In this document: one piece after another, positions 10,882 to 32,996 of the stretch
Layout: each line of letters begins with the position of its first letter
How positions within the stretch are numbered: the stretch's first letter is position 1
From: a virus
Virus record (IMG/VR): IMGVR_UViG_3300045988_006074
Span: 1-36,145 of that record
DNA length: 36,145 nt
Strand: one strand, 5' to 3'
The notes under the pieces: model-generated
The model's input: only the letters and a program-made list of their open reading frames with translations
What the model was told of the DNA's origin: nothing
Databases searched by the model: none
Program-made: the position numbers and the translations under genes

Positions 10882-11289
10882 GTGCTTGTTACGACGGTTC
10901 AGGATATTATTTTTGGTATTATTGCACAAAAAGAGGCAACCGGCATGACAAACCAGCAGATTGCGGATTCAGCGAAGGTATCAAAGACAACCGTTGACCG
11001 ATTGCTGCGAAACGACCCAGGAACCAGCCCAAATGCGCAGACGCTTATCGATGTAGCTAATACAGTCGGGTATCAAATCGGAGGCGCCGAACCACACAGC
11101 GAGGTGCGGGAAATCTACGAGGAGCAAATCAAGCAAACAGAAGCGCATTACAACAGAATACTTACACTGCAAAATCGGTGGCTGCGCTTCGCTGTTATTC
11201 TCTGCCTGATCTTAATCGTCTTTGTCATAGCAATGCTTCTATTTGATATGACGCACCCAGACACAGGCTGGATAACAGACAATAGTTGA
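10882..11289 (+). CDS. HTH (XRE-like) protein with a C-terminal transmembrane anchor.
   Basis: GMTNQQIADSAKVSKTTVDRLLRND, followed by RWLRFAVILCLILIVFVIAMLLF. The start is ambiguous: GTG at 10882, or ATG at 10945 with an AAAGAGG RBS. Confidence 0.65.
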   Translation: MLVTTVQDIIFGIIAQKEATGMTNQQIADSAKVSKTTVDRLLRNDPGTSPNAQTLIDVANTVGYQIGGAEPHSEVREIYEEQIKQTEAHYNRILTLQNRWLRFAVILCLILIVFVIAMLLFDMTHPDTGWITDNS

Positions 11290-11342
11290 TAATGCGGGGG
11301 TATCAGCGAAAGCCGATACCCCTTTTTTGCAGGAGGAAAAAT

Positions 11343-12419
11343 ATGGGATGTATCAAATGCGGTCGAGACATTCCCGACGGGGCCATGTTCTGCCCGTGGT
11401 GCGGAAAAAAACAGGTGCAAGAAAAGCGGAAGGCCCTCAAACGAGCAAACGGGACAGGCACGGTTTACAAGCTGTCAGGCCGTCGCAGCCGTCCGTGGGT
11501 AGCGGCTAAAAACAAGATTGTCATTGGGTATTACGCGAAGAAAACAGAGGCCATGGAAGCCATAGAGCGCCTGGCTGGTAGATCAATCTCGGAACGGTAC
11601 AATATGACATTCGAGGAGGTATTTCAGGAATGGAAAGCGGAACACTTCCGGGAAATTGGAGAAAAGAGCATTGCCGCATATGAAAACGCTTACGCAAAAA
11701 GCAAGGAGCTCTATGGTAGGCAGTTTCGCTCCCTGCGCGTGAAGGACTTCCAGTCAATTATTGATAACAACAAAGCTGCCAAGTCACGCTCTGCACAAGC
11801 CAAATACAAGCATCTGTTTGTGCAACTATCAGAGTGGGCCGTGCGCGAGGAGGCTGCCACGACAAACTACGCCAGATTTGTGAAGCTAGACGGTGAAAAG
11901 CCGAAAGAAAAAGCTGTGTTTACAGATTCAGATATAAAAAAGATGGAAGCAGCCGGAACACCCGCGGCAAAACTCACCCTCATGCTGATTTACACCGGGA
12001 TGCGCATCGGCGAAATGTTTTCCCTGCCGCTTTCCGGATATCATGAATCCTATGTTATCGGCGGCGAAAAAACAGAAGCGGGCCGAAATCGAGTCATACC
12101 GATCCGCCCAGAGGGGCGTGCCTACTTTGCAGAGATCGCAGCTAGAGCAGATGGTGATCTTCTGATTTCCGGGTATGCCGGGCAAAAAGTAGCTGAAAAC
12201 TTCCGGAAGCGAGATTATTACCCGATGTTGGAGCAGCTCGGTATTGAAAAAAAGCCACCACACGCAACGCGTCACACCTTCGCAAGCTGGGCCGTCTCCG
12301 CCGGGATCAGACCGGAAATGCTGCAGAAAATTCTTGGTCACTCAAACTATGATACAACAGCAGATATATACGTTCACGCAAATATTGATCAGCTTGTGGA
12401 AGAGGTAGAAGCGCACTGA
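11343..12419 (+). CDS. int: Tyrosine integrase with an N-terminal zinc ribbon and an arm-type DNA-binding domain.
   Basis: An ATG at 11343 follows GGAGG. The protein reads MGCIKCGRDIPDGAMFCPWCG; TGTVYKLSGRRSRPWVAAK...; GMRIGEMFSL; HATRHTFASWAV; LGHSNYDTTADIYVH. Confidence 0.9.
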   Translation: MGCIKCGRDIPDGAMFCPWCGKKQVQEKRKALKRANGTGTVYKLSGRRSRPWVAAKNKIVIGYYAKKTEAMEAIERLAGRSISERYNMTFEEVFQEWKAEHFREIGEKSIAAYENAYAKSKELYGRQFRSLRVKDFQSIIDNNKAAKSRSAQAKYKHLFVQLSEWAVREEAATTNYARFVKLDGEKPKEKAVFTDSDIKKMEAAGTPAAKLTLMLIYTGMRIGEMFSLPLSGYHESYVIGGEKTEAGRNRVIPIRPEGRAYFAEIAARADGDLLISGYAGQKVAENFRKRDYYPMLEQLGIEKKPPHATRHTFASWAVSAGIRPEMLQKILGHSNYDTTADIYVHANIDQLVEEVEAH

Positions 12420-25718: not shown

Positions 25719-26585
25719 TTAAGCCACGGAAGCAATAAGCTTTGCGATCTGGCTGCCGTCGGTGACCTTCGCGCCGTAGACATGCAGGCCCTTGACGGCG
25801 TCGGCAAAGCGCTTTTCGAGACGGTATGCCTCGGTCTTGATGATCTGCTCGGCATAGGTCGTCGCCGTGCTGACCTGGGCCGTAATCTCGAAATACGCCG
25901 TCTTCCCAGTGTCCGTGCCGGTGCCGGTGTGGACGTTGTTGGACATATAAACCGTAAAGCCAGCCACGCGGCCAACCTCGCCGTTGAGCAGGGCGCTCTG
26001 ACCGGCGGCGGCGTCGCTCTTGGCAAAGCGGTCATCCATCAGCAGAAGCGCGTAGACTTCAGGCGGGACAACGATGGTCCGGCCGGTGTTGGGGACGTTG
26101 GCCTTGTCCAGTTTCGTGCGCAGCTTCACGATGTTCTCATACACGTTTGCCGCCGTCAGTGCAATCGGGGCACTGGCCGCGCCGACCGTGTTGCCGGAAG
26201 CAGCGCCCGCAGCGATCGTCTTGAGCAGATAAGCGTCCGCGACATCCGCCAGGCTATAGGCAGCGCGGCCCATCGCAGTGTCGATCAGGTCGCCTGCTGC
26301 CTGCACATTGTCCACGTCGTCGACCTGGAAGTTAAAGTATTTGCACTGGTCGATGACAAGCGTCTGTTCCGTCGTGGTCAGCGCATCGGGATCGGCAATG
26401 TCGGCGTTTTTGGTGTAATCCTTGACGGTGATCGCGCCGATGGAGTTGATGTGAACGGTGTCGCCCTGGTTGGCAATAATACCCTGGTACTCCCGGTTGA
26501 CCAGGTTCGTTGCGACGTGCGCCTTGTCCAGTGCGTAGAGGAGCCGTGCGCTCCAAAGTTCAGGGATAAAAGTAGTAGTAGCCAT
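25719..26585 (-). CDS. Major capsid protein (HK97 fold, P22-coat/gp5-like N-terminal pattern).
   Basis: MATTTFIPELWSARLLYALDKAHVATNLVNREYQG... It lies after the scaffold gene. The RBS is AAAGGAG. Confidence 0.85.
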   Translation of the reverse strand: MATTTFIPELWSARLLYALDKAHVATNLVNREYQGIIANQGDTVHINSIGAITVKDYTKNADIADPDALTTTEQTLVIDQCKYFNFQVDDVDNVQAAGDLIDTAMGRAAYSLADVADAYLLKTIAAGAASGNTVGAASAPIALTAANVYENIVKLRTKLDKANVPNTGRTIVVPPEVYALLLMDDRFAKSDAAAGQSALLNGEVGRVAGFTVYMSNNVHTGTGTDTGKTAYFEITAQVSTATTYAEQIIKTEAYRLEKRFADAVKGLHVYGAKVTDGSQIAKLIASVA

Positions 26586-26587
26586 GT

Positions 26588-27187
26588 TTATTCTCCTTTC
26601 TGGCCAATGGACGCCTTAATCGCGTCCCAGTTTGCATTGATTTCCGCAGCGCTCATGCTGCGAAGCTCTTCTGTCGTGTAGCGTTTCGCCGGTGTCCCCG
26701 CCGGAGGATTGGCAGGATTCGCCCCTTGCTGCTGCATGGTAGAAACCAGGCCCTTGTAAGCCCCGCTGAGCAGCGCGTCAAGGCCCTTTGTGTCCTTGAT
26801 CTTGTCGCCATCCAGCTCCAATGCGGCCATTTCCTCGCCGCAGCCGCGCATGGCAAGGTCGAGATTCGCGCCGGTGATGTTTTTGCTTTCGAAGAAAGCC
26901 CGGACAGCCTTTTCCTTTGCTGCCTTCGTTTCCTTCGCGGTGATATTGGACTTAAAAGCCTCAAAATCCGAGTGCTCTTTCTCGTATTTCGACTTGTAGC
27001 CGCCATCGCCTGCCGCCTTTAGATCGTCCAATTCCTTCTGAACGCCCGCCAGCTTTCCCGCGTCGGCCTTATATCTGCTGACATCAGCTTTCAGACCGTC
27101 CACGGTTTCTGTGTGTGCCTCGATGATGGTGTCAACCTGTTCGTCGGTCAGACCCATGCCCTTCAGCAATTTTCTGGTAATGCTCAT
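26588..27187 (-). CDS. Scaffolding protein (GP20-like).
   Basis: MSITRKLLKGMGLTDEQVDTIIEAHTETVDGLKADVSRYKADA... The protein is helical and charged. Confidence 0.8.
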   Translation of the reverse strand: MSITRKLLKGMGLTDEQVDTIIEAHTETVDGLKADVSRYKADAGKLAGVQKELDDLKAAGDGGYKSKYEKEHSDFEAFKSNITAKETKAAKEKAVRAFFESKNITGANLDLAMRGCGEEMAALELDGDKIKDTKGLDALLSGAYKGLVSTMQQQGANPANPPAGTPAKRYTTEELRSMSAAEINANWDAIKASIGQKGE

Positions 27188-27270
27188 TGTGTTACTCTCC
27201 TTTTCTTCGGGGGTCGGTTCTTCGCCCTTTGAGTTTTATAAAAACCGCTGTCCTTCGCGGGTTTTACCAA

Positions 27271-27309
27271 AGCAAAAAGCCAACCGCTGACATTTTGTCA
27301 GCAGCTGGC
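27271..27309 (-). terminator. Rho-independent terminator specific to the minus strand.
   Basis: The minus strand reads GCCAGCTGCTGACA-AAA-TGTCAGCGGTTGGC (14 bp including two G-U pairs), then TTTTTGCTTT. On the plus strand the same positions are mismatches. Confidence 0.7.
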
Positions 27310-27327
27310 TTTGCGTTTTCTATTCTG

Positions 27328-27723
27328 TTATCCGTCCTTGATGGCGTCCTCAAGGATCGCGCGGTATTGGGCCGCGTGATCCGCGACGGCAGGCTTGAGA
27401 TACGGCTGCGCACGGTTGCCGTGGGTGTAATGCCAATTGCCGTGCGCGTCCTGGTATACCCAGGGCGTCGGCCTGCCGCCGGGGTAGTATTTGCCGGTGC
27501 CAAGCTCTACATATGGGGCATATTCGAGGTTGGAGCCGATGAGCACATCGTTGTCATCCACCTGATGTGTTATGCTGTTGCGCAGGGTGCCATTGTCCAC
27601 AGGGCACAGCTTTTTTGCATACCCCTCCGCCGTCAGCCCGCACTTTTCAAGCCCGCGCATAATCGCCGCTTCAAACGCTTCCTTTACGGCGTCGCTATTG
27701 TCCGTAATCTCAACATCGCTCAT
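27328..27723 (-). CDS. HK97 gp10-family protein (neck/tail component), located upstream of the scaffold gene.
   Basis: CPVDNGTLRNSITHQVDDNDVLIGSNLEYAPYVELGTG...AQPYLKPAV. Confidence 0.75.
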   Translation of the reverse strand: MSDVEITDNSDAVKEAFEAAIMRGLEKCGLTAEGYAKKLCPVDNGTLRNSITHQVDDNDVLIGSNLEYAPYVELGTGKYYPGGRPTPWVYQDAHGNWHYTHGNRAQPYLKPAVADHAAQYRAILEDAIKDG

Positions 27724-27729
27724 GGAATT

Positions 27730-27924
27730 TCACCTCTGTTTCTTGCCGCAGCTTTGCACCGCCTCATTGAGTAGCGGCGCGAAATTCTCCCAAAACCGCA
27801 GAAACGGCGCGATATTCCAGCCGTCCCCGCTGGAGGATTTCGGTACAAGCCCCGCCTCGATTGCTTCCACCATTGCCGCGCCTTTCAGTGTCGCGGCAAG
27901 CTCTGGCTGCTTACGTGATTTCAT
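27730..27924 (-). CDS. Small hypothetical protein (64 aa).
   Basis: An ATG at 27924 lies 8 nt after GAAGGGAG. Confidence 0.5.
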   Translation of the reverse strand: MKSRKQPELAATLKGAAMVEAIEAGLVPKSSSGDGWNIAPFLRFWENFAPLLNEAVQSCGKKQR

Positions 27925-27938
27925 GTGCGTCGCTCCCT

Positions 27939-28139
27939 TCACAAATCTTTGCTTACCGCCGCCACGCCACAGATCGCAGCGCAAAGGATAAGCCACGCCG
28001 CATATGCAAACAGCGGACTCAGTACAGCATACCACGGCCAGTTGACCACATCACACGCCCGCAGCACAATAAAAACGATCTGCAGCAACTCTAACATCTT
28101 CTTTACGAATCCGGGTATGATTGATTTCATTTCTTCCAT
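27939..28139 (-). CDS. Small two-TM membrane protein (66 aa).
   Basis: The RBS is GAAGGAGGA. The protein reads LELLQIVFIVLRA...WYAVLSPLFAYAAWLILCAAICGVAAV. Confidence 0.6.
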   Translation of the reverse strand: MEEMKSIIPGFVKKMLELLQIVFIVLRACDVVNWPWYAVLSPLFAYAAWLILCAAICGVAAVSKDL

Positions 28140-28161
28140 GCAATCCTCCTTCTGTGCATAG

Positions 28162-28190
28162 AAAAAGCACCATGCGGCTGCATAGTGCTT
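28162..28190 (-). terminator. Rho-independent terminator after the YjcQ-like gene.
   Basis: The minus strand reads AAGCACTATGC-AGCC-GCATGGTGCTT (one mismatch) followed by TTTCTAT. Confidence 0.55.
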
Positions 28191-28197
28191 TAATCCT

Positions 28198-28563
28198 CTA
28201 TTTCGCCATGTTGGTTATTGTGGCTGCTATGGCTTGCCCGGCAACCGCCGCTCCAATATCCCTCAGCTCCCGCAGCGCTTTTTTTAATGCAGAATTTGTG
28301 TCGATGTATTCCAATCCCGCAAGTGTGATTGACGGGTGCGAATACTCCCACATGACCACGGGAAGCGGCTGATTGTCAATATCGTCCACAACAAACAGCC
28401 CGTCTATCAGTCCTTCCTTTTGGAGCTTGATAGCCAAACTGTCACGCTTTGCAGCGGGCGCTTTCATGACCTTTTCATCAACGAGCGCACAATCAAACAC
28501 TTTCTGCCCTTCACCGACGCGGACGGCAGCCAAGAGACGCGCTATAATCTTGAAATCATCCAT
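28198..28563 (-). CDS. YjcQ-family winged-helix protein.
   Basis: MDDFKIIARLLAAV...LQKEGLIDGL...PSITLAGLEYIDTNSALKKA. An ATG at 28563 follows GGAG; a TTG at 28572 is also possible. Confidence 0.65.
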   Translation of the reverse strand: MDDFKIIARLLAAVRVGEGQKVFDCALVDEKVMKAPAAKRDSLAIKLQKEGLIDGLFVVDDIDNQPLPVVMWEYSHPSITLAGLEYIDTNSALKKALRELRDIGAAVAGQAIAATITNMAK

Positions 28564-28864
28564 CTTGCCCAACTCCGATCTTCTTTAAGTATTCCTCATA
28601 CTCATACGGAATGCCGATGTCGTAGTTCTTGTAGTAGTGCAGAAACTCGTAGGGAAAAACGAAGTCGCCGTCCTCGAAAATTCCAGCACGAATTTTTTCT
28701 TTCGTAAAAAGCTCAATCGACGGCTCAGAGGTCAACCAAGCGTCAAGCGATTCTATATGTGCAATTACATCTTTCTTTGGAATAGAATTCTTGTATTCCC
28801 TGTACTTGGAGAAATCCTCGTTGCTTCCTTCGTGTGGAAGCCCTCTAAAAAGGCCAAAATTCAT
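28556..28864 (-). CDS. Low-GC orphan protein (102 aa) directly after the MuF-fusion gene, a candidate immunity protein.
   Basis: The ATG lies 4 nt after the MuF stop, and the RBS sits within the AGGAGGAGG Arg codons. Hand counts of 60-nt lines give about 35-47% G+C, against more than 60% in neighbouring structural genes. Confidence 0.65.
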   Translation of the reverse strand: MNFGLFRGLPHEGSNEDFSKYREYKNSIPKKDVIAHIESLDAWLTSEPSIELFTKEKIRAGIFEDGDFVFPYEFLHYYKNYDIGIPYEYEEYLKKIGVGQDG

Positions 28865-28867
28865 ATT

Positions 28868-30373
28868 TTATTTTCGCCTCCTCCTCTGGTTTGGTGTAAA
28901 TGCCACAAACTTGCCATCGCCATTGAAACCTACCTTCAATGTTCCGCCCTTTGAAATGTATAACATTCCATTCGGCGCTTTGACCTCAACTCCGAGCGCG
29001 TTTGCCAATTCCTCAGCAAAGCAATAATGATCACCGACCTGCTTGCCGGTGCTGCACGAAAGCAACCGTATCTTCTGCCCGTTCCATCCGTCGCTGTGCT
29101 GGATAACGGAGGCAAGCAAGCGCGGTGACATATTCGTCTCCGCCGTGCCGAAGCCGACGGCATTCGGTGTGCCGTGCATTGCCACGTCAAAATAGGTTTT
29201 CAGCGGCTTCACGTTCTGGATGTACTTTTGCAGCGGGTCGTTGTCGGGGAAACAGGCAAAGCCGTTTTCCAGCTTCATTGTACGCTTTTTTACGATGGAT
29301 TTCAAGTCATCCCTCGCGTCAGCACCCAGGAATTTTAAAGCAGCTGTGTCATCCTTAGCATAACCGGCAACAATTTCTTTTGCTTTCCACGCCTCCCACT
29401 CTTTATAGGTCATATTCGGAATCAGAACGCTTTCGCCCGTCTCTGGGTCGCGTGCCCTGCGCTGCGCCCCAGACGTGTCCACGTCATCCAGCGCAGCGAC
29501 CATCGTGCAGCGGCAGTTATAGACCTCGCCGGGCCGCCCCTGCGGGTCGCCGGGGAAGCGGCAGCCGTTGGAAAACTTCTCGTCCGTGCCGACCTCCTCC
29601 CCGTCCAGCGCCGCGTGGGAGTGCCGCGTGCGCCCGTCTAACGTCGCCAGCCACTCTTTTTTGAGCTTGATCCCCATCTTCTCCGCCGCCGCGTAACTGT
29701 CCATACGCCCGGCGTTCTGCGCCCCGGTGAAGGCCGTGCGAGCCGTCCGGATTGCGCTAGCGCGGTCCATGGTCGTGATGCGCTGCTGCAGATCGTCCGC
29801 GATTCCCCGCAGGCTCCGGCCCTGCAGGATAGAGCTGGTCACGCTGGCCGTGATCTGCCGCCGCCCATACGCCAGGTCAATACCACGCCGCAGCGCCCGG
29901 GCAGGCGGATAATTTGGCATCAGCTCCGGCTGCTCCACGATCAGCCGCCGGGCCGTCTGCTCGTCCCAGAGGTCAAATCCGACGTTCCCGGCGACCTGCT
30001 CAATCGTATACGCCGCATAGTTGCGGTTCAGACTGTAAATGCCCGGCGTCTCGTCGTTTATGTAAGAAATCGCCACGGCGTTTGCATTGGTCATTCGCTG
30101 CGCAATCCGCTCCCGCAGTGCCTGGTAGCGCTCCCCGCGTCCGATTTGTGCCAGCCGCCATTGCTTATAGTCCTGCTCCGTCCACTCCTTGCCGTTGACG
30201 ATCTCGCCAATCAGCGCCCTCATTTCCTCGTCGCGCTTTGCAAACTGCTCAAAGTAAGCGTCGATGGTCTCTTGCAGCTCCCGCCCGGCCTGTGCATAAA
30301 TCCGCGCGATGCGTCGTTCCAAAGCCAGGAGCTTTTTGTCGGTCAGCGTATGTCCGAGGTCATGCGTCGCCAT
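28868..30373 (-). CDS. Minor head protein of the MuF / SPP1 gp7 family, fused to an unrelated C-terminal domain of about 200 aa.
   Basis: The MuF part ends ...FPGDPQGRPGEVYNCRCTMVAALDD. The C-terminal domain reads ...YFDVAMHGTPNAVGF...RLLASVIQHSDGWNGQKIRLLSCSTGKQ...FAEELANALGVEVKAPNGMLYI. Confidence 0.85.
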   Translation of the reverse strand: MATHDLGHTLTDKKLLALERRIARIYAQAGRELQETIDAYFEQFAKRDEEMRALIGEIVNGKEWTEQDYKQWRLAQIGRGERYQALRERIAQRMTNANAVAISYINDETPGIYSLNRNYAAYTIEQVAGNVGFDLWDEQTARRLIVEQPELMPNYPPARALRRGIDLAYGRRQITASVTSSILQGRSLRGIADDLQQRITTMDRASAIRTARTAFTGAQNAGRMDSYAAAEKMGIKLKKEWLATLDGRTRHSHAALDGEEVGTDEKFSNGCRFPGDPQGRPGEVYNCRCTMVAALDDVDTSGAQRRARDPETGESVLIPNMTYKEWEAWKAKEIVAGYAKDDTAALKFLGADARDDLKSIVKKRTMKLENGFACFPDNDPLQKYIQNVKPLKTYFDVAMHGTPNAVGFGTAETNMSPRLLASVIQHSDGWNGQKIRLLSCSTGKQVGDHYCFAEELANALGVEVKAPNGMLYISKGGTLKVGFNGDGKFVAFTPNQRRRRK

Positions 30374-31724
30374 TGTTATTCACCGGCGCTGGCGGCTCCT
30401 GCGGCTCACCAAAGCTGCGGCCCAAGTCCTCAGCGGACCGTCGCTCCATCATGGCCTCGTACTGGTCAATGTCCCCATTGATCGTCAGCAGCTTCTTTGT
30501 GATGTATTCGTCATCGTAATACTGCGCCCCAAGCAAGAGCGCCTGCGTCTCTTCGGTCTTGTTGATGATCTGATTCCGCGTGTAGCTTGGCTGATCGTCG
30601 ATACCGGCCAGCCGCAGAATTTCCACAATGAAGCGCGTGACCTCCGCCTCAAACTTGTCCGTTTTCAGGTCAAGCGGAACATAGCTGGCCTTGATTGCCG
30701 TCGCCGTCTGGTTTCCCGCCGTGATAGCAGAAGCGTCGAAACACTGAAAATCTTCATACAGTTTCCGTTTCAGCATATCTATCGTCGTATTTGTCCCTTC
30801 GTACGGCGCTTCAATTGTCTGCGGTGTTGCCTTCGCACCGTCGTCGCCGTCTGCGTGGGCTACATGCAGCGTTTTGAGCCGCTCCACAAATTTTACATCG
30901 TCGAGGTCATTCATGCCGCCGCAGTTGGAGAGGACCCAGTAAATCAGATTCCCCTCGTCCACATTGTTGACCATGTTTGACGTCGCCAAATCCAGCGCGT
31001 CGATGGTGTTTCGGCTCCCGGCAATCTCAGATAGGCACATGCGATTGTTTTTCAGCGGAACGACCGGGAAGCCGGGGTAATTGCCGCCGTCGTATATCTC
31101 GCTGCCGCCGACCGGAGCAGTACGAATTAAAAGCTTATAGCTGCGCTTCGGCTTCATCACGTCCATGCTTTTGTTTTTTTCCTGGAAATACTCCGTAAAC
31201 CCGTCCGGTTCATAGAGTGTGGCCCGTAGCGGCTTGTCCGGTGCAATCTGCCAGAAGCGAATGCCCGCCATCAGCGCACCGTTTTCCTCATCGTAGAGCG
31301 GCACAAACTCCAGCAAGCTGAACACCCGCAGGTGATCCAGATCCCAGAAGCCGAAGGACACGCCTGCAATTTTTGCGCTGCGTGCGGCATCCATGATTTC
31401 CTGGTCAAAATCAGCGCACAGTTTCTTTCCTGTCGATTCATCGCCGAAGGTGACGCCATTGCCCAGAAGATAGCTGACAGCCTGGTCGACCGCAAAGCCA
31501 AAAAATCGGCTTGCAAGTTTATGATTTGCCGTCCACATGTCCTTGTGTGCCTTGCCCTGCAGGTCGTAGAGGACTTTTTCATAACGATTGATCGTCGGAT
31601 TCAATCCGCTATAATACAGCTCCGCATCCTCTGCGGTCCGGTAAGCCGGAGACCCTCGGTGCTCCGCAATAGCAGCGCGGATAAATGCGATGCGGCTCTG
31701 TTTGTCATCGCCAGCCGCAAGCAA
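30360..31724 (-). CDS. Portal protein (SPP1 gp6-like).
   Basis: A 454-aa protein between TerL and MuF. The start is uncertain: TTG at 31724, and the best SD (GAGAGGTGA) lies further upstream. Confidence 0.85.
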   Translation of the reverse strand: MLAAGDDKQSRIAFIRAAIAEHRGSPAYRTAEDAELYYSGLNPTINRYEKVLYDLQGKAHKDMWTANHKLASRFFGFAVDQAVSYLLGNGVTFGDESTGKKLCADFDQEIMDAARSAKIAGVSFGFWDLDHLRVFSLLEFVPLYDEENGALMAGIRFWQIAPDKPLRATLYEPDGFTEYFQEKNKSMDVMKPKRSYKLLIRTAPVGGSEIYDGGNYPGFPVVPLKNNRMCLSEIAGSRNTIDALDLATSNMVNNVDEGNLIYWVLSNCGGMNDLDDVKFVERLKTLHVAHADGDDGAKATPQTIEAPYEGTNTTIDMLKRKLYEDFQCFDASAITAGNQTATAIKASYVPLDLKTDKFEAEVTRFIVEILRLAGIDDQPSYTRNQIINKTEETQALLLGAQYYDDEYITKKLLTINGDIDQYEAMMERRSAEDLGRSFGEPQEPPAPVNNNGDA

Positions 31725-31757
31725 ATCTTGATACGTTTTGATTGTCGCTCACCTCTC

Positions 31758-32996
31758 TTACAATAATGATTGATACGCCGTTTTCCCCGCCTTCTGGCGG
31801 AGGACGGTATAAGCAAAATAGCGGATATCGTCCATGGCGTGGTCATTCTCTTTTACGGGCCGGTCCGTCTCCGCCTTTTCATCCCATCGGTAGAGACCAA
31901 ACTCCCGAATGCAGGCGCTGCAGCTGCGGTGGATTTTGATTGTCCCGTCCTGCAAAAACCGCGCCGTCGTGTTGATTCCGGCCAGGACATCGTTTTTCGC
32001 CTTGCGGACCGGAAAGCGCTTGTGCCGCCGTATGACCTCGATGAACGACGCCGCCGACGGGTCGACGATTACCGCCTGCACAGGCTTGTCCCCGGCCAAT
32101 TGCTCCAGCGCGGTGTAATAATCCTCATCGGTTTTTTGCTGCTGTTCCCGTCGCCCGGAATAGTAATATTCCGCAACGCGGGTCGCTGTTTTGCCGTCCC
32201 AGCACCACAGCCCGGCAGAGAACGGGTTCAGCGTTCCATAGTCGCAGGAGATATAATACCGACCGCCATGCGGTGGCTTGTCCACGATGCAGCTATCGCC
32301 GAACATGGGGTAAATAAGCCCCTCCGCAACAACCCACAGGCCGCGAATGTAGCGATCATAAAAGACGCCGCTGTACATCTCCTTCGTTCGCTCGATCATC
32401 TGCGGAGTCAAAATCGGATTATCTTCCAACAGAAAGTGAATGTGCAGCGTGTTTTCCCGCTGATTTTCAATCCATTCTTTGTAAAACCAGTGCTGCGGAG
32501 ATTCGGGGTTGCAGTTGAAAAAATACTTCGGGCGTTCAAACGATATCGCACGGGACAACGCCTGTTCCACGAAGCTGCGCGGCATCAGCGCCACCTCGTC
32601 AAATAATACACCGGCCAATGTAATGCCCTGGATGAGCATATAAGAGCTTTCATCCTTGCCGCCGAACAGGTAAAACCAATTCGTCACGTCCCCACAGCGA
32701 ACCGTCAAAACCCGTGTGGAGACTTTGTATCGCATGGACAGCGCTGCACCCAAACCGTCAATTTCCATCAACGGCTTCAAAATGTTCCGCTCCGCCGCCT
32801 GCACGGTTTTTCCGCAAATGGCAAAATTGGTGTGGTTGTAATTTTCCATGGCCCACAGCACGAAGGCCATAGACATGATCGTCGTTTTGCCAGAGCGAAC
32901 AGAGCCGTCACAAATCAGCGCCAGATCATCGGAGCCGATAAAGTCCATAATCTGGCGCTGCTTTGCGGATAGCGATTTAATCCGCATTTTCTTCAC
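31758..32996 (-). CDS. terL: Terminase large subunit (PBSX/Terminase_6-like).
   Basis: The Walker A motif is CDGSVRSGKT. Other matches are ...LFDEVALMP and, in the nuclease part, DPSAASFI...DHAMDDIRYF. The start is GTG at 32996 or ATG at 32987. Confidence 0.9.
   Translation of the reverse strand: MKKMRIKSLSAKQRQIMDFIGSDDLALICDGSVRSGKTTIMSMAFVLWAMENYNHTNFAICGKTVQAAERNILKPLMEIDGLGAALSMRYKVSTRVLTVRCGDVTNWFYLFGGKDESSYMLIQGITLAGVLFDEVALMPRSFVEQALSRAISFERPKYFFNCNPESPQHWFYKEWIENQRENTLHIHFLLEDNPILTPQMIERTKEMYSGVFYDRYIRGLWVVAEGLIYPMFGDSCIVDKPPHGGRYYISCDYGTLNPFSAGLWCWDGKTATRVAEYYYSGRREQQQKTDEDYYTALEQLAGDKPVQAVIVDPSAASFIEVIRRHKRFPVRKAKNDVLAGINTTARFLQDGTIKIHRSCSACIREFGLYRWDEKAETDRPVKENDHAMDDIRYFAYTVLRQKAGKTAYQSLL

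Follow-up and report, generated by a model that had tools for sequence, protein, structure and literature searches.

A MuF-type minor head protein of a gut phage with a predicted caspase-like cysteine peptidase domain and a linked candidate immunity gene

The stretch of DNA considered here, referred to as the window, comprises 36,145 nucleotides (nt) of the IMG/VR virus record IMGVR_UViG_3300045988_006074 (positions 1 to 36,145). On its minus strand a gene for a minor head protein of the MuF type, extended by a C-terminal domain unrelated to MuF (the cargo), is followed by a gene for a small protein of 102 amino acids (aa), and the two are discussed below as a candidate toxin/immunity pair. 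The features of the locus are as follows:

28868..30373, minus strand: MuF-cargo gene, a confirmed open reading frame (ORF) of 501 aa
29462..30373, minus strand: MuF / SPP1-gp7-like minor head protein part, aa 1-304, ending in GEVYNCRCTMVAALDD
29384..29461, minus strand: conserved linker, aa 305-330, RRARDPETGESVLIPNMTYKEWEAWK, which forms the 5' cassette junction
28871..29278, minus strand: predicted clan-CD cysteine peptidase domain, DUF4347-related and similar to the cysteine protease domains (CPDs) of large toxins, ~aa 366-501
29174..29176 and 29054..29056, minus strand: predicted catalytic residues His400 and Cys440, respectively
28877..28885, minus strand: Shine-Dalgarno sequence AGGAGGAGG read within the terminal Arg codons (..PNQRRRRK*)
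28556..28864, minus strand: 102-aa partner gene, a predicted immunity/inhibitor gene by linkage, coupling and orphan persistence
28198..28572, minus strand: YjcQ-like gene (Pfam YjcQ 1.6e-8, PHROG 3675 1e-11)
28205..29384, minus strand: swappable cassette (protease cargo, 102-aa gene and YjcQ-like moron), delimited by DNA comparison with relatives
28158..28201, minus strand: intrinsic-terminator-like hairpin with a U-run, found by RNA folding, which forms the 3' cassette border

Both ORFs are as drawn in the initial annotation, which had been made from the nucleotide sequence alone, and the MuF/SPP1 gp7 pattern that it had read in the first ~300 aa is borne out by family searches. Phage_Mu_F (PF04233) matches aa 173-291 (nt 29501..29857) at 8e-21 with 75.3 bits against a cutoff of 29.6, TIGR01641 (phageSPP1_gp7) matches the MuF part at 6.5e-11 with 42.6 bits against a cutoff of 39.65, and PHROG 115, 'minor head protein', at 1e-39. 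The reported fall in G+C content is also real, with values of 0.65-0.70 for the MuF core, 0.49-0.555 for the final 200 codons of the gene and 0.41-0.47 for the 102-aa ORF, and the next gene is YjcQ-like as had been proposed.

The last ~170 aa of the protein have no match in Pfam, NCBIfam, PHROG or PADLOC beyond noise (e.g., PLRV_ORF5 at 0.076), and searches of PDB sequences, by phmmer with the single sequence or with a profile, returned chance matches only (ribosomal L6, FAS, ostreolysin). The domain is not a chance ORF, as it has ~200 close homologues and a search with the core profile reached 2,124 representative clusters at E<=1e-3, most of them with the domain in C-terminal position; the 102-aa ORF in turn has 284 homologues. 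The cargo occupies ~135-170 aa after the linker and contains the motifs FDVAMHGTPNAVGF, with His400, and IRLLSCSTGK, with Cys440. All close homologues have the domain at the extreme C-terminus, ending in PNQRxRxK, and are either fused to MuF (PF04233) or Phage_min_cap2 (PF06152) or are short fragments; 'stand-alone' homologues of 134-145 aa were considered as a distinct architecture and dismissed, being mostly truncated remnants or gene-calling fragments. In an alignment of 51 sequences Cys136 (Cys440 of the whole protein), D92, G97, R132, T138 and E150 are invariant, and His96 (His400) is kept in at least 90%; among 85 representatives at <=50% identity, columns of His, Arg, Cys, Gly, Ala and Pro are invariant. 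Further marks of the clade are the N-terminal element GFxCFPDxDPL, a beta-hairpin region of variable sequence towards the C-terminus (~aa 468-493) and the PNQRRRxK tail.

An AlphaFold2 (AF2) model built on the 51-sequence alignment has a mean pLDDT of 86.5, with values >90 for residues 61-190. In domain numbering, a strand at 90-94 precedes H96-G97 and a strand at 130-134 precedes C136, with a helix between these consecutive core strands, so that the ordered His-Gly and Ser-Cys-Ser-Thr-Gly pair of the initial annotation indeed lies directly after predicted beta-strands. The best Foldseek matches in the PDB are the MARTX CPD of Vibrio cholerae (3gcd, 3fzy, 3eeb) and those of TcdA (3ho6) and TcdB (3pee), at probabilities of 0.97-1.0; CPDs account for seven of the best ten matches, and they are followed by Craspase/SAVED CHAT proteases, legumains, gingipain and caspases. 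This clan-CD list, together with the conserved His and Cys, agrees with the clan-CD type suggested earlier from the order of the two residues. His400 and Cys440 are, by model and conservation, the predicted catalytic dyad of a probable peptidase with the clan-CD (caspase-hemoglobinase) fold. One might suppose instead that the head protein is extended by a domain for decoration, scaffolding or DNA binding that has no enzymatic role and in which the His and Cys are incidental, since sequence models assign it to no enzymatic family and the basic tail RRRRK could suggest nucleic-acid binding. We regard this as very improbable: the fold matches peptidases, the His, the Cys and the motifs around them are invariant in the 85 divergent representatives and are kept in RHS-borne relatives that lack the basic Arg tail, and the Arg codons of the tail are better explained by the embedded Shine-Dalgarno sequence described below.

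The foreign, swappable character that had been proposed for the C-terminal domain is evident from comparison with related phages. The linker (RRARDPETG..MTYxEW) is common to MuF proteins with unlike cargos and precedes at least 10 unrelated clusters of C-terminal extensions, carried by MuF proteins that are 78-99% identical. Among the loci L084-L091, whose MuF N-termini are 95-99% identical to that of the window, most lack both the C-terminal domain and the 102-aa gene, and these are present only in two contigs that the domain search retrieved as well. The slot may instead hold an ADPrib_exo_Tox domain (Pfam 6e-16), two types of HExxH domain, a JAB-like HxHP..S..D domain, a coiled coil, a CdiA_C-like/PD-(D/E)xK-like (nuclease-like) type that lies below the Pfam cutoff, or no extension at all, and most of the alternative cargo types have a small downstream ORF of their own. 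Examples of alternative cargos are found among L084-L163, at L092 (4913-5719), L086 (4913-5677), L094, L122 and L151. As judged from their sequences, these near-isogenic MuF genes may represent a natural isogenic series of predicted virion-delivered effectors.

The borders of the exchange are sharp. The window is 95.5% identical to L086 over 31799..29384, shows no identity to it across the cassette, and is again 96.6% identical over 28205..26500; with L086 and L089 considered together the identity is 95-96% upstream of the cassette and 92-97% from 28205 on, and the DNA identity to L086, L089, L090 and L084 stops at 29381-29390. At the other border, a terminator had been placed at ~28162..28190; a consensus scan did not pick it up, and the hairpin with its U-run emerged from folding, as a 10-bp hairpin with a dG of -20.7 kcal/mol and a z of -3.5, matched by 0 of 200 shuffles. 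The segment 28156..28205 is 96% conserved even in L006, despite a different gene upstream, and is also the cassette edge in L086. The linker-coding sequence (29384..29461) and the terminator may together serve as homologous anchors for cassette exchange. The initial annotation had the terminator close a cassette that included the YjcQ-like gene; the terminator stands, as a folded and conserved border, but the YjcQ-like gene is no conserved part of the module. Within the related loci it occurs only in the closest relative (L004/L088) and is therefore best seen as an independent moron lying between the 102-aa gene, whose ORF it overlaps at the 3' end by 17 nt, and the terminator.

The 102-aa gene starts a few nt from the stop codon of the domain in 82 of the 83 loci of the first set and in 19 of 20 close genome loci, both loci without an adjoining copy being contig ends, and in the alignment of related phages it swaps together with the domain, as had been anticipated. 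Because the IMG/VR loci come mostly from one large sample series (3300045988), locus counts overstate the number of independent observations; independent support comes from genome-contig and ENA/Logan loci. At the junction the sequence is CAG AGG AGG AGG CGA AAA TAA AAT ATG, with the ATG 4 nt after the stop and AGGAGG within the terminal Arg codons, in line with the ribosome-binding site proposed at the outset. Over 29 distinct junctions, AGG and AGA make up 73 of the 90 Arg codons in the tail (last eight codons) and 82 of the 184 in the remainder of the domain, from which it appears that the basic tail doubles as the Shine-Dalgarno sequence of the partner gene; an ATGA stop/start overlap is present at 10 of the 29. 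The 102-aa gene is, by the reading of these junctions, translationally coupled to the MuF gene.

The 102-aa protein itself has no match in Pfam, NCBIfam or PADLOC and only a weak one to PHROG_24729 (0.02). Its 284 homologues are each ~100 aa long, none with a Pfam domain, and their C-terminal half is nearly invariant (DGDFxFPYEFLHYYKNYDIGIPYEYEEYL) with a more variable N-terminal half. In several loci the partner is intact beside a damaged protease: next to a frameshifted domain in L190-L192, among NUDIX, EPSP synthase and SmpB genes; next to a 60-aa stub lacking His and Cys in L186; next to N-terminally truncated domains in L182 and L183; and next to an internally deleted MuF in L194 and L195. 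This is the pattern expected, from gene content, of an orphan immunity gene, and such persistence argues against a partner role that would be meaningful only with a cis-encoded domain. It is also worth mentioning the chromosomal remnant in L001 (1872-7143), with a 145-aa domain, a 100-aa partner and a gp10-like gene, which adjoins an oppositely oriented ART-PolyVal gene, a toxin-antitoxin (TA) pair ParE/DUF6290 and Cas1/Cas2; the region looks like a small conflict-gene island.

The remnants bear on another reading of the pair, as a TA-like module, for addiction or abortive infection, which would keep the prophage stable with no need of delivery by virions. The two genes are tightly coupled, remnants comprising the domain, the partner and a gp10 fragment outlast the prophage in several independent chromosomal contexts, and one of them lies beside the ParE/DUF6290 pair. 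However, in many remnants it is the toxin that decays and not the partner, the opposite of what addiction predicts; moreover, the putative toxin is fused in-frame to a virion protein within the late packaging operon, and its family is shared with secreted toxins of the RHS type and of the type VII secretion system (T7SS). Addiction is for these reasons a quite improbable account of the locus.

The initial annotation had left the domain outside any named family, a statement that can now be replaced, as the profile comparisons make the C-terminal domain a divergent relative of DUF4347. Proteins of 2.8-6.8 kaa found in the core-profile search carry three to eight internal copies of the domain, and the copies in P0241, P0248 and P0312 are DUF4347 (PF14252) according to Pfam, at 49-57 bits against a cutoff of 24.6. 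By hhalign, the window clade matches 42 DUF4347-type repeats at 99.8% probability (E 3e-29, 134 columns) with the HG and C motifs aligned; the two share the pattern HG...L.sC.TG...FA..LA..LGv.V.AP, but the window clade is divergent and the window protein itself stays below the PF14252 threshold. The giant proteins (P0241 of 3184 aa, P0248, P0312) begin with WXG100_2 and have a DUF4347-type His/Cys domain about every 450 aa between effector-like modules, which include PI3/PI4-kinase-like and TcdA/TcdB glycosyltransferase modules. In its arrangement this layout resembles MARTX, with one putative processing peptidase per effector.

Other relatives, 39-45% identical, follow directly on the RHS core-end motif and make up the very end of a PAAR-DUF6531-RHS protein in Aestuariibius insulae and of one RHS protein each in metagenome-assembled genomes (MAGs) of a Kangiellaceae member and of Acetatifactor. 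Among the 85 representatives, 18 are fused to MuF and 12 to Phage_min_cap2, and close relatives also occur on VG15, LPD3, PBECR3, HINT and WXG100/T7SS-signal leaders; in IMG/VR, a ~580-aa PF06152-like protein carries the domain in 71 of 74 non-MuF loci. The presence of one domain across several delivery systems is a hallmark by which polymorphic toxin domains are defined (PMC5576092, PMC3482391). The RHS/PAAR relatives are followed by a 115-121-aa Zn-ribbon gene (L185 6396-6761, L187 4885-5232, L188 6358-6717), whose product has an N-terminal CxxC...CxxC and a C-terminal FPY/FMY end, has no Pfam match and is found across Alpha- and Gammaproteobacteria and Firmicutes. It is a candidate second immunity family for the protease superfamily; a relationship to the 102-aa family, considered for the common FPY motif, was discarded at an hhalign probability of 0.1%. 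Neither the domain nor the 102-aa partner was matched by tblastn in 50,697 deposited phage genomes; by blastn the deposited phages, among them Flavonifractor phage Chenonceau, share the MuF core only, and the module was found only in gut metagenomes and in MAGs of Oscillospiraceae, Butyricicoccaceae, Lachnospiraceae and their relatives.

The Tox-Caspase domain of polymorphic toxins is a C-terminal toxin domain with caudovirales in its phyletic list (PMC3482391). Compared by description, the window domain shares with it the caspase-like fold, here as predicted, the His/Cys dyad, the terminal position, in which Zhang et al. saw a sign of a toxin role, and the family-wide occurrence in RHS, type VI secretion system (T6SS) and T7SS proteins, and it fits the Tox-Caspase class on these features. 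The partners differ, as those of Tox-Caspase are Imm36 (DUF600) and Imm57 whereas the window has the new 102-aa family and the RHS relatives the Zn-ribbon protein, and so does the carrier, since MuF is not among the delivery routes listed for Tox-Caspase (PMC3482391) and the window cargo rides on MuF. The Peptidase C80 CPDs of MARTX and TcdA/TcdB have the same His-then-Cys order, ~40-50 residues apart with each residue after a strand, and are also alike in size (~130-200 aa) and in their multi-domain toxin setting, but no sequence similarity to the window domain is detectable. The CPDs are internal, activated by inositol hexakisphosphate (InsP6) and autoprocessing in the eukaryotic cytosol, whereas the window domain stands at the end of its protein, is found in settings that target bacteria and comes with a partner protein of its own. 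Toxins of the Cpe1 type (PMC12136450) pair a cysteine protease with a cognate immunity protein in interbacterial antagonism, but Cpe1 is papain-like, with Cys before His and another fold, is delivered by the T6SS and has no homology to the window domain.

These kinships raise the possibility that the domain is a cis-acting autoprocessing peptidase for maturation or release of MuF, with the 102-aa protein as an assembly chaperone or timing regulator and no toxin-immunity pair at all. The closest solved structures are indeed autoprocessing CPDs, the DUF4347-type repeats between the effector modules of the giant toxins have a processing-type layout, and according to Zhang et al. (2012, PMC3482391) the caspase-like domains of polymorphic toxins mostly serve as releasing peptidases. 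Here, however, the domain is the C-terminal-most one, with nothing downstream to release; near-isogenic slots filled with an ADP-ribosyltransferase, with metallopeptidases or with nothing imply that it is dispensable for morphogenesis; and the PAAR-RHS proteins with terminal relatives have a release mechanism of their own. The partner, moreover, is intact where the protease has decayed and the phage is gone, and the upstream Leu of KLENGF, considered as a conserved autoprocessing site, varies (L/T/M/I) across homologues and gives such a site no support. Pure autoprocessing is less likely given the dispensable slot and the terminal position, and we hold it to be improbable; the domain could nevertheless also free itself from MuF.

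In view of the above we consider it probable that the locus is a MuF-type polymorphic toxin cassette, with a Tox-Caspase/DUF4347-type peptidase as its cargo and the 102-aa protein as the cognate inhibitor. Such toxins have been described by Jamet et al. (2017, PMC5576092) and as the 'MuF phage-capsid-like system' by Zhang et al. (2012); the window has in common with them the PF04233 N-terminus and the portal/terminase neighbourhood, the variable C-terminus, the downstream ORF of <150 aa, a temperate phage of gut Firmicutes and the pooled cargo domains. Of the MuF toxins, 89% are followed by an ORF of <150 aa (PMC5576092). The cargo lies outside the catalogued MuF toxin domains (nucleases, metallopeptidases, ADP-ribosyltransferases, RelA-like) and belongs to the 'unknown C-terminal extension' class of the same study (PMC5576092). 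By its sequence the locus thus agrees with MuF polymorphic toxins in domain, context, swapping and small ORF, and toxicity and its neutralisation are presumed. What is new is the assignment of the cargo and the 102-aa partner family; the architecture of MuF polymorphic toxins was already known.

In the proposed mechanism the MuF/gp7 minor head protein would act as the delivery scaffold, joined by the linker to the peptidase cargo. The fusion protein would be expressed late and taken into the particle with MuF at the portal, and would then enter a recipient cell with the DNA or be freed at lysis. In the recipient the peptidase, perhaps after cutting itself off MuF, would cleave one or more cytoplasmic proteins. 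The 102-aa product, translated by coupling, would bind and inhibit the peptidase, so guarding the producer and lysogens, and the cargo and its partner would move jointly by recombination between the linker-coding sequence and the conserved terminator. The proteolytic activity is predicted from the modelled fold and the conservation of the dyad, the immunity function is suggested by linkage, coupling and orphan persistence of the gene, and the domain is presumed to be toxic.

Several points weigh against the toxin cassette. Packaging and delivery are postulated by analogy with SPP1 gp7 and from published hypotheses on MuF fusions (PMC5512222, PMC5576092). Those relatives that are understood best, CPDs and internal DUF4347 repeats, serve autoprocessing and are not toxins. 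In the literature on DUF4347 function, the mention of PA0256 of Pseudomonas aeruginosa, a DUF4347 protein described as an Hcp-bound putative T6SS toxin (PMC8262886), stands alone, with no experimental data found. The window protein has no Pfam match to Peptidase_C80, DUF4347 or any peptidase family at E<=1. The Foldseek scores are modest, with E ~1e-3 to 1e-1 and TM scores of 0.25-0.37 (E ~1e-3 and TM 0.35-0.37 for the CPDs), the query used for normalisation having a flexible lead of 60 residues; the clan-CD fold class is for that reason well supported and not proven. The domain and its partner have correlated pairwise distances (Mantel r 0.79, 0 of 2000 permutations), but linkage by itself could account for this as well as for the strict adjacency. 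Finally, the AF2 model of the 102-aa protein (pLDDT 91.7) finds no fold match in the PDB by Foldseek (best E 1.6), and the predicted structure has, on that comparison, no recognisable inhibitor fold.

A related question is against whom the cargo would be directed. It may be an injected host-takeover or anti-defence effector accompanied by a safety inhibitor for the producer, according to 'polyvalent protein' logic, and not a weapon against competitors; the enzyme would then cleave host defence or regulatory proteins early, and the orphan 102-aa genes in host chromosomes would be a host counter-measure. MuF-fused enzymes have been proposed as effectors entering with the DNA (PMC5512222), and Jamet et al. 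considered that cargos of low toxicity, e.g., proteases, may steer lysis/lysogeny or resist defences (PMC5576092). Close relatives of the domain are fused to the polyvalent-protein modules LPD3 and PBECR3, the JAB-like and ADP-ribosyltransferase cargos of the same slot are typical of counter-defence, and orphan partner genes do occur in host chromosomes. On the other hand, the strictly linked and coupled partner implies a cargo harmful to its producer, a property that anti-defence enzymes can do without, the domain family is also a cargo of PAAR-RHS (T6SS-type) and T7SS-type proteins of interbacterial antagonism, and there is neither an indicated defence target nor a PADLOC match. Host takeover in place of such antagonism is rather unlikely; the cassette may serve competition among bacteria, takeover of the host or counter-defence, or both.

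A more speculative idea, to which we give only a slight chance, is that the 102-aa protein represents a new fold of clan-CD inhibitors and that its orphan copies are a bacterial defence against a capsid-injected protease. If so, pairs of MuF cargo and partner would belong to a phage-host arms race fought with virion-delivered enzymes, beyond a weapon of bacterium against bacterium, and as a corollary the CPD-like domain would be activated by a cue from the recipient's cytoplasm, like the InsP6-activated CPDs.

The surroundings of the cassette are those of a late packaging operon. A family search of the neighbours identified, on the same strand, TerS (GP3_package), TerL (Terminase_6N) and an SPP1-type portal upstream of the MuF gene, and an HK97-gp10-like gene, a scaffold (Phage_scaffold) and a capsid (Phage_capsid_4) gene downstream of it. 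Further features of the window are:

30360..31724: SPP1_portal gene (match 2.3e-36), adjoining the MuF gene
27939..28139, minus strand: 66-aa predicted membrane ORF (PHROG 1374 8e-11, weak Tmemb_185A) with its own AGGAGG
27328..27723, minus strand: HK97-gp10-like (tail-completion/Neck1) gene
11286..12419, plus strand: tyrosine integrase with an N-terminal zinc-ribbon (Zn_Ribbon_1/DZR) domain

The HK97-gp10-like gene has an unusual place between the MuF cassette and the scaffold/capsid genes; the order is kept in relatives, and fragments of this gene persist beside orphan modules. The 66-aa membrane ORF lies just 3' of the cassette terminator and is 68-94% identical in some relatives, whatever the cargo type; it was rejected as a part of the module, as it is not co-conserved with the C-terminal domain. 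Besides the tyrosine integrase, the window encodes a Cro/CI-type helix-turn-helix protein, a YqaJ recombinase and an amidase, which indicates that the phage is temperate; in the preferred reading it is a siphovirus of gut Clostridia of the Oscillospiraceae type.

MuF toxins are abundant in phages of the human gut, but two in three of the C-terminal extensions have no assignment and hardly any have been tested. One widespread MuF extension is now tied to a predicted fold and to a superfamily that spans phage-capsid, T6SS-RHS and T7SS scaffolds, with exact cassette borders and a linked partner family that has a confident predicted fold and no solved relative. Current concepts are not overturned by this locus, which provides a solid and experimentally attractive lead. 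DUF4347 gains a functional hypothesis, as a protease toxin or a processing domain, and the candidate toxin/antidote pair, together with near-isogenic phages that differ only in their MuF cargo, constitutes an experimental panel for the study of virion-delivered effectors.

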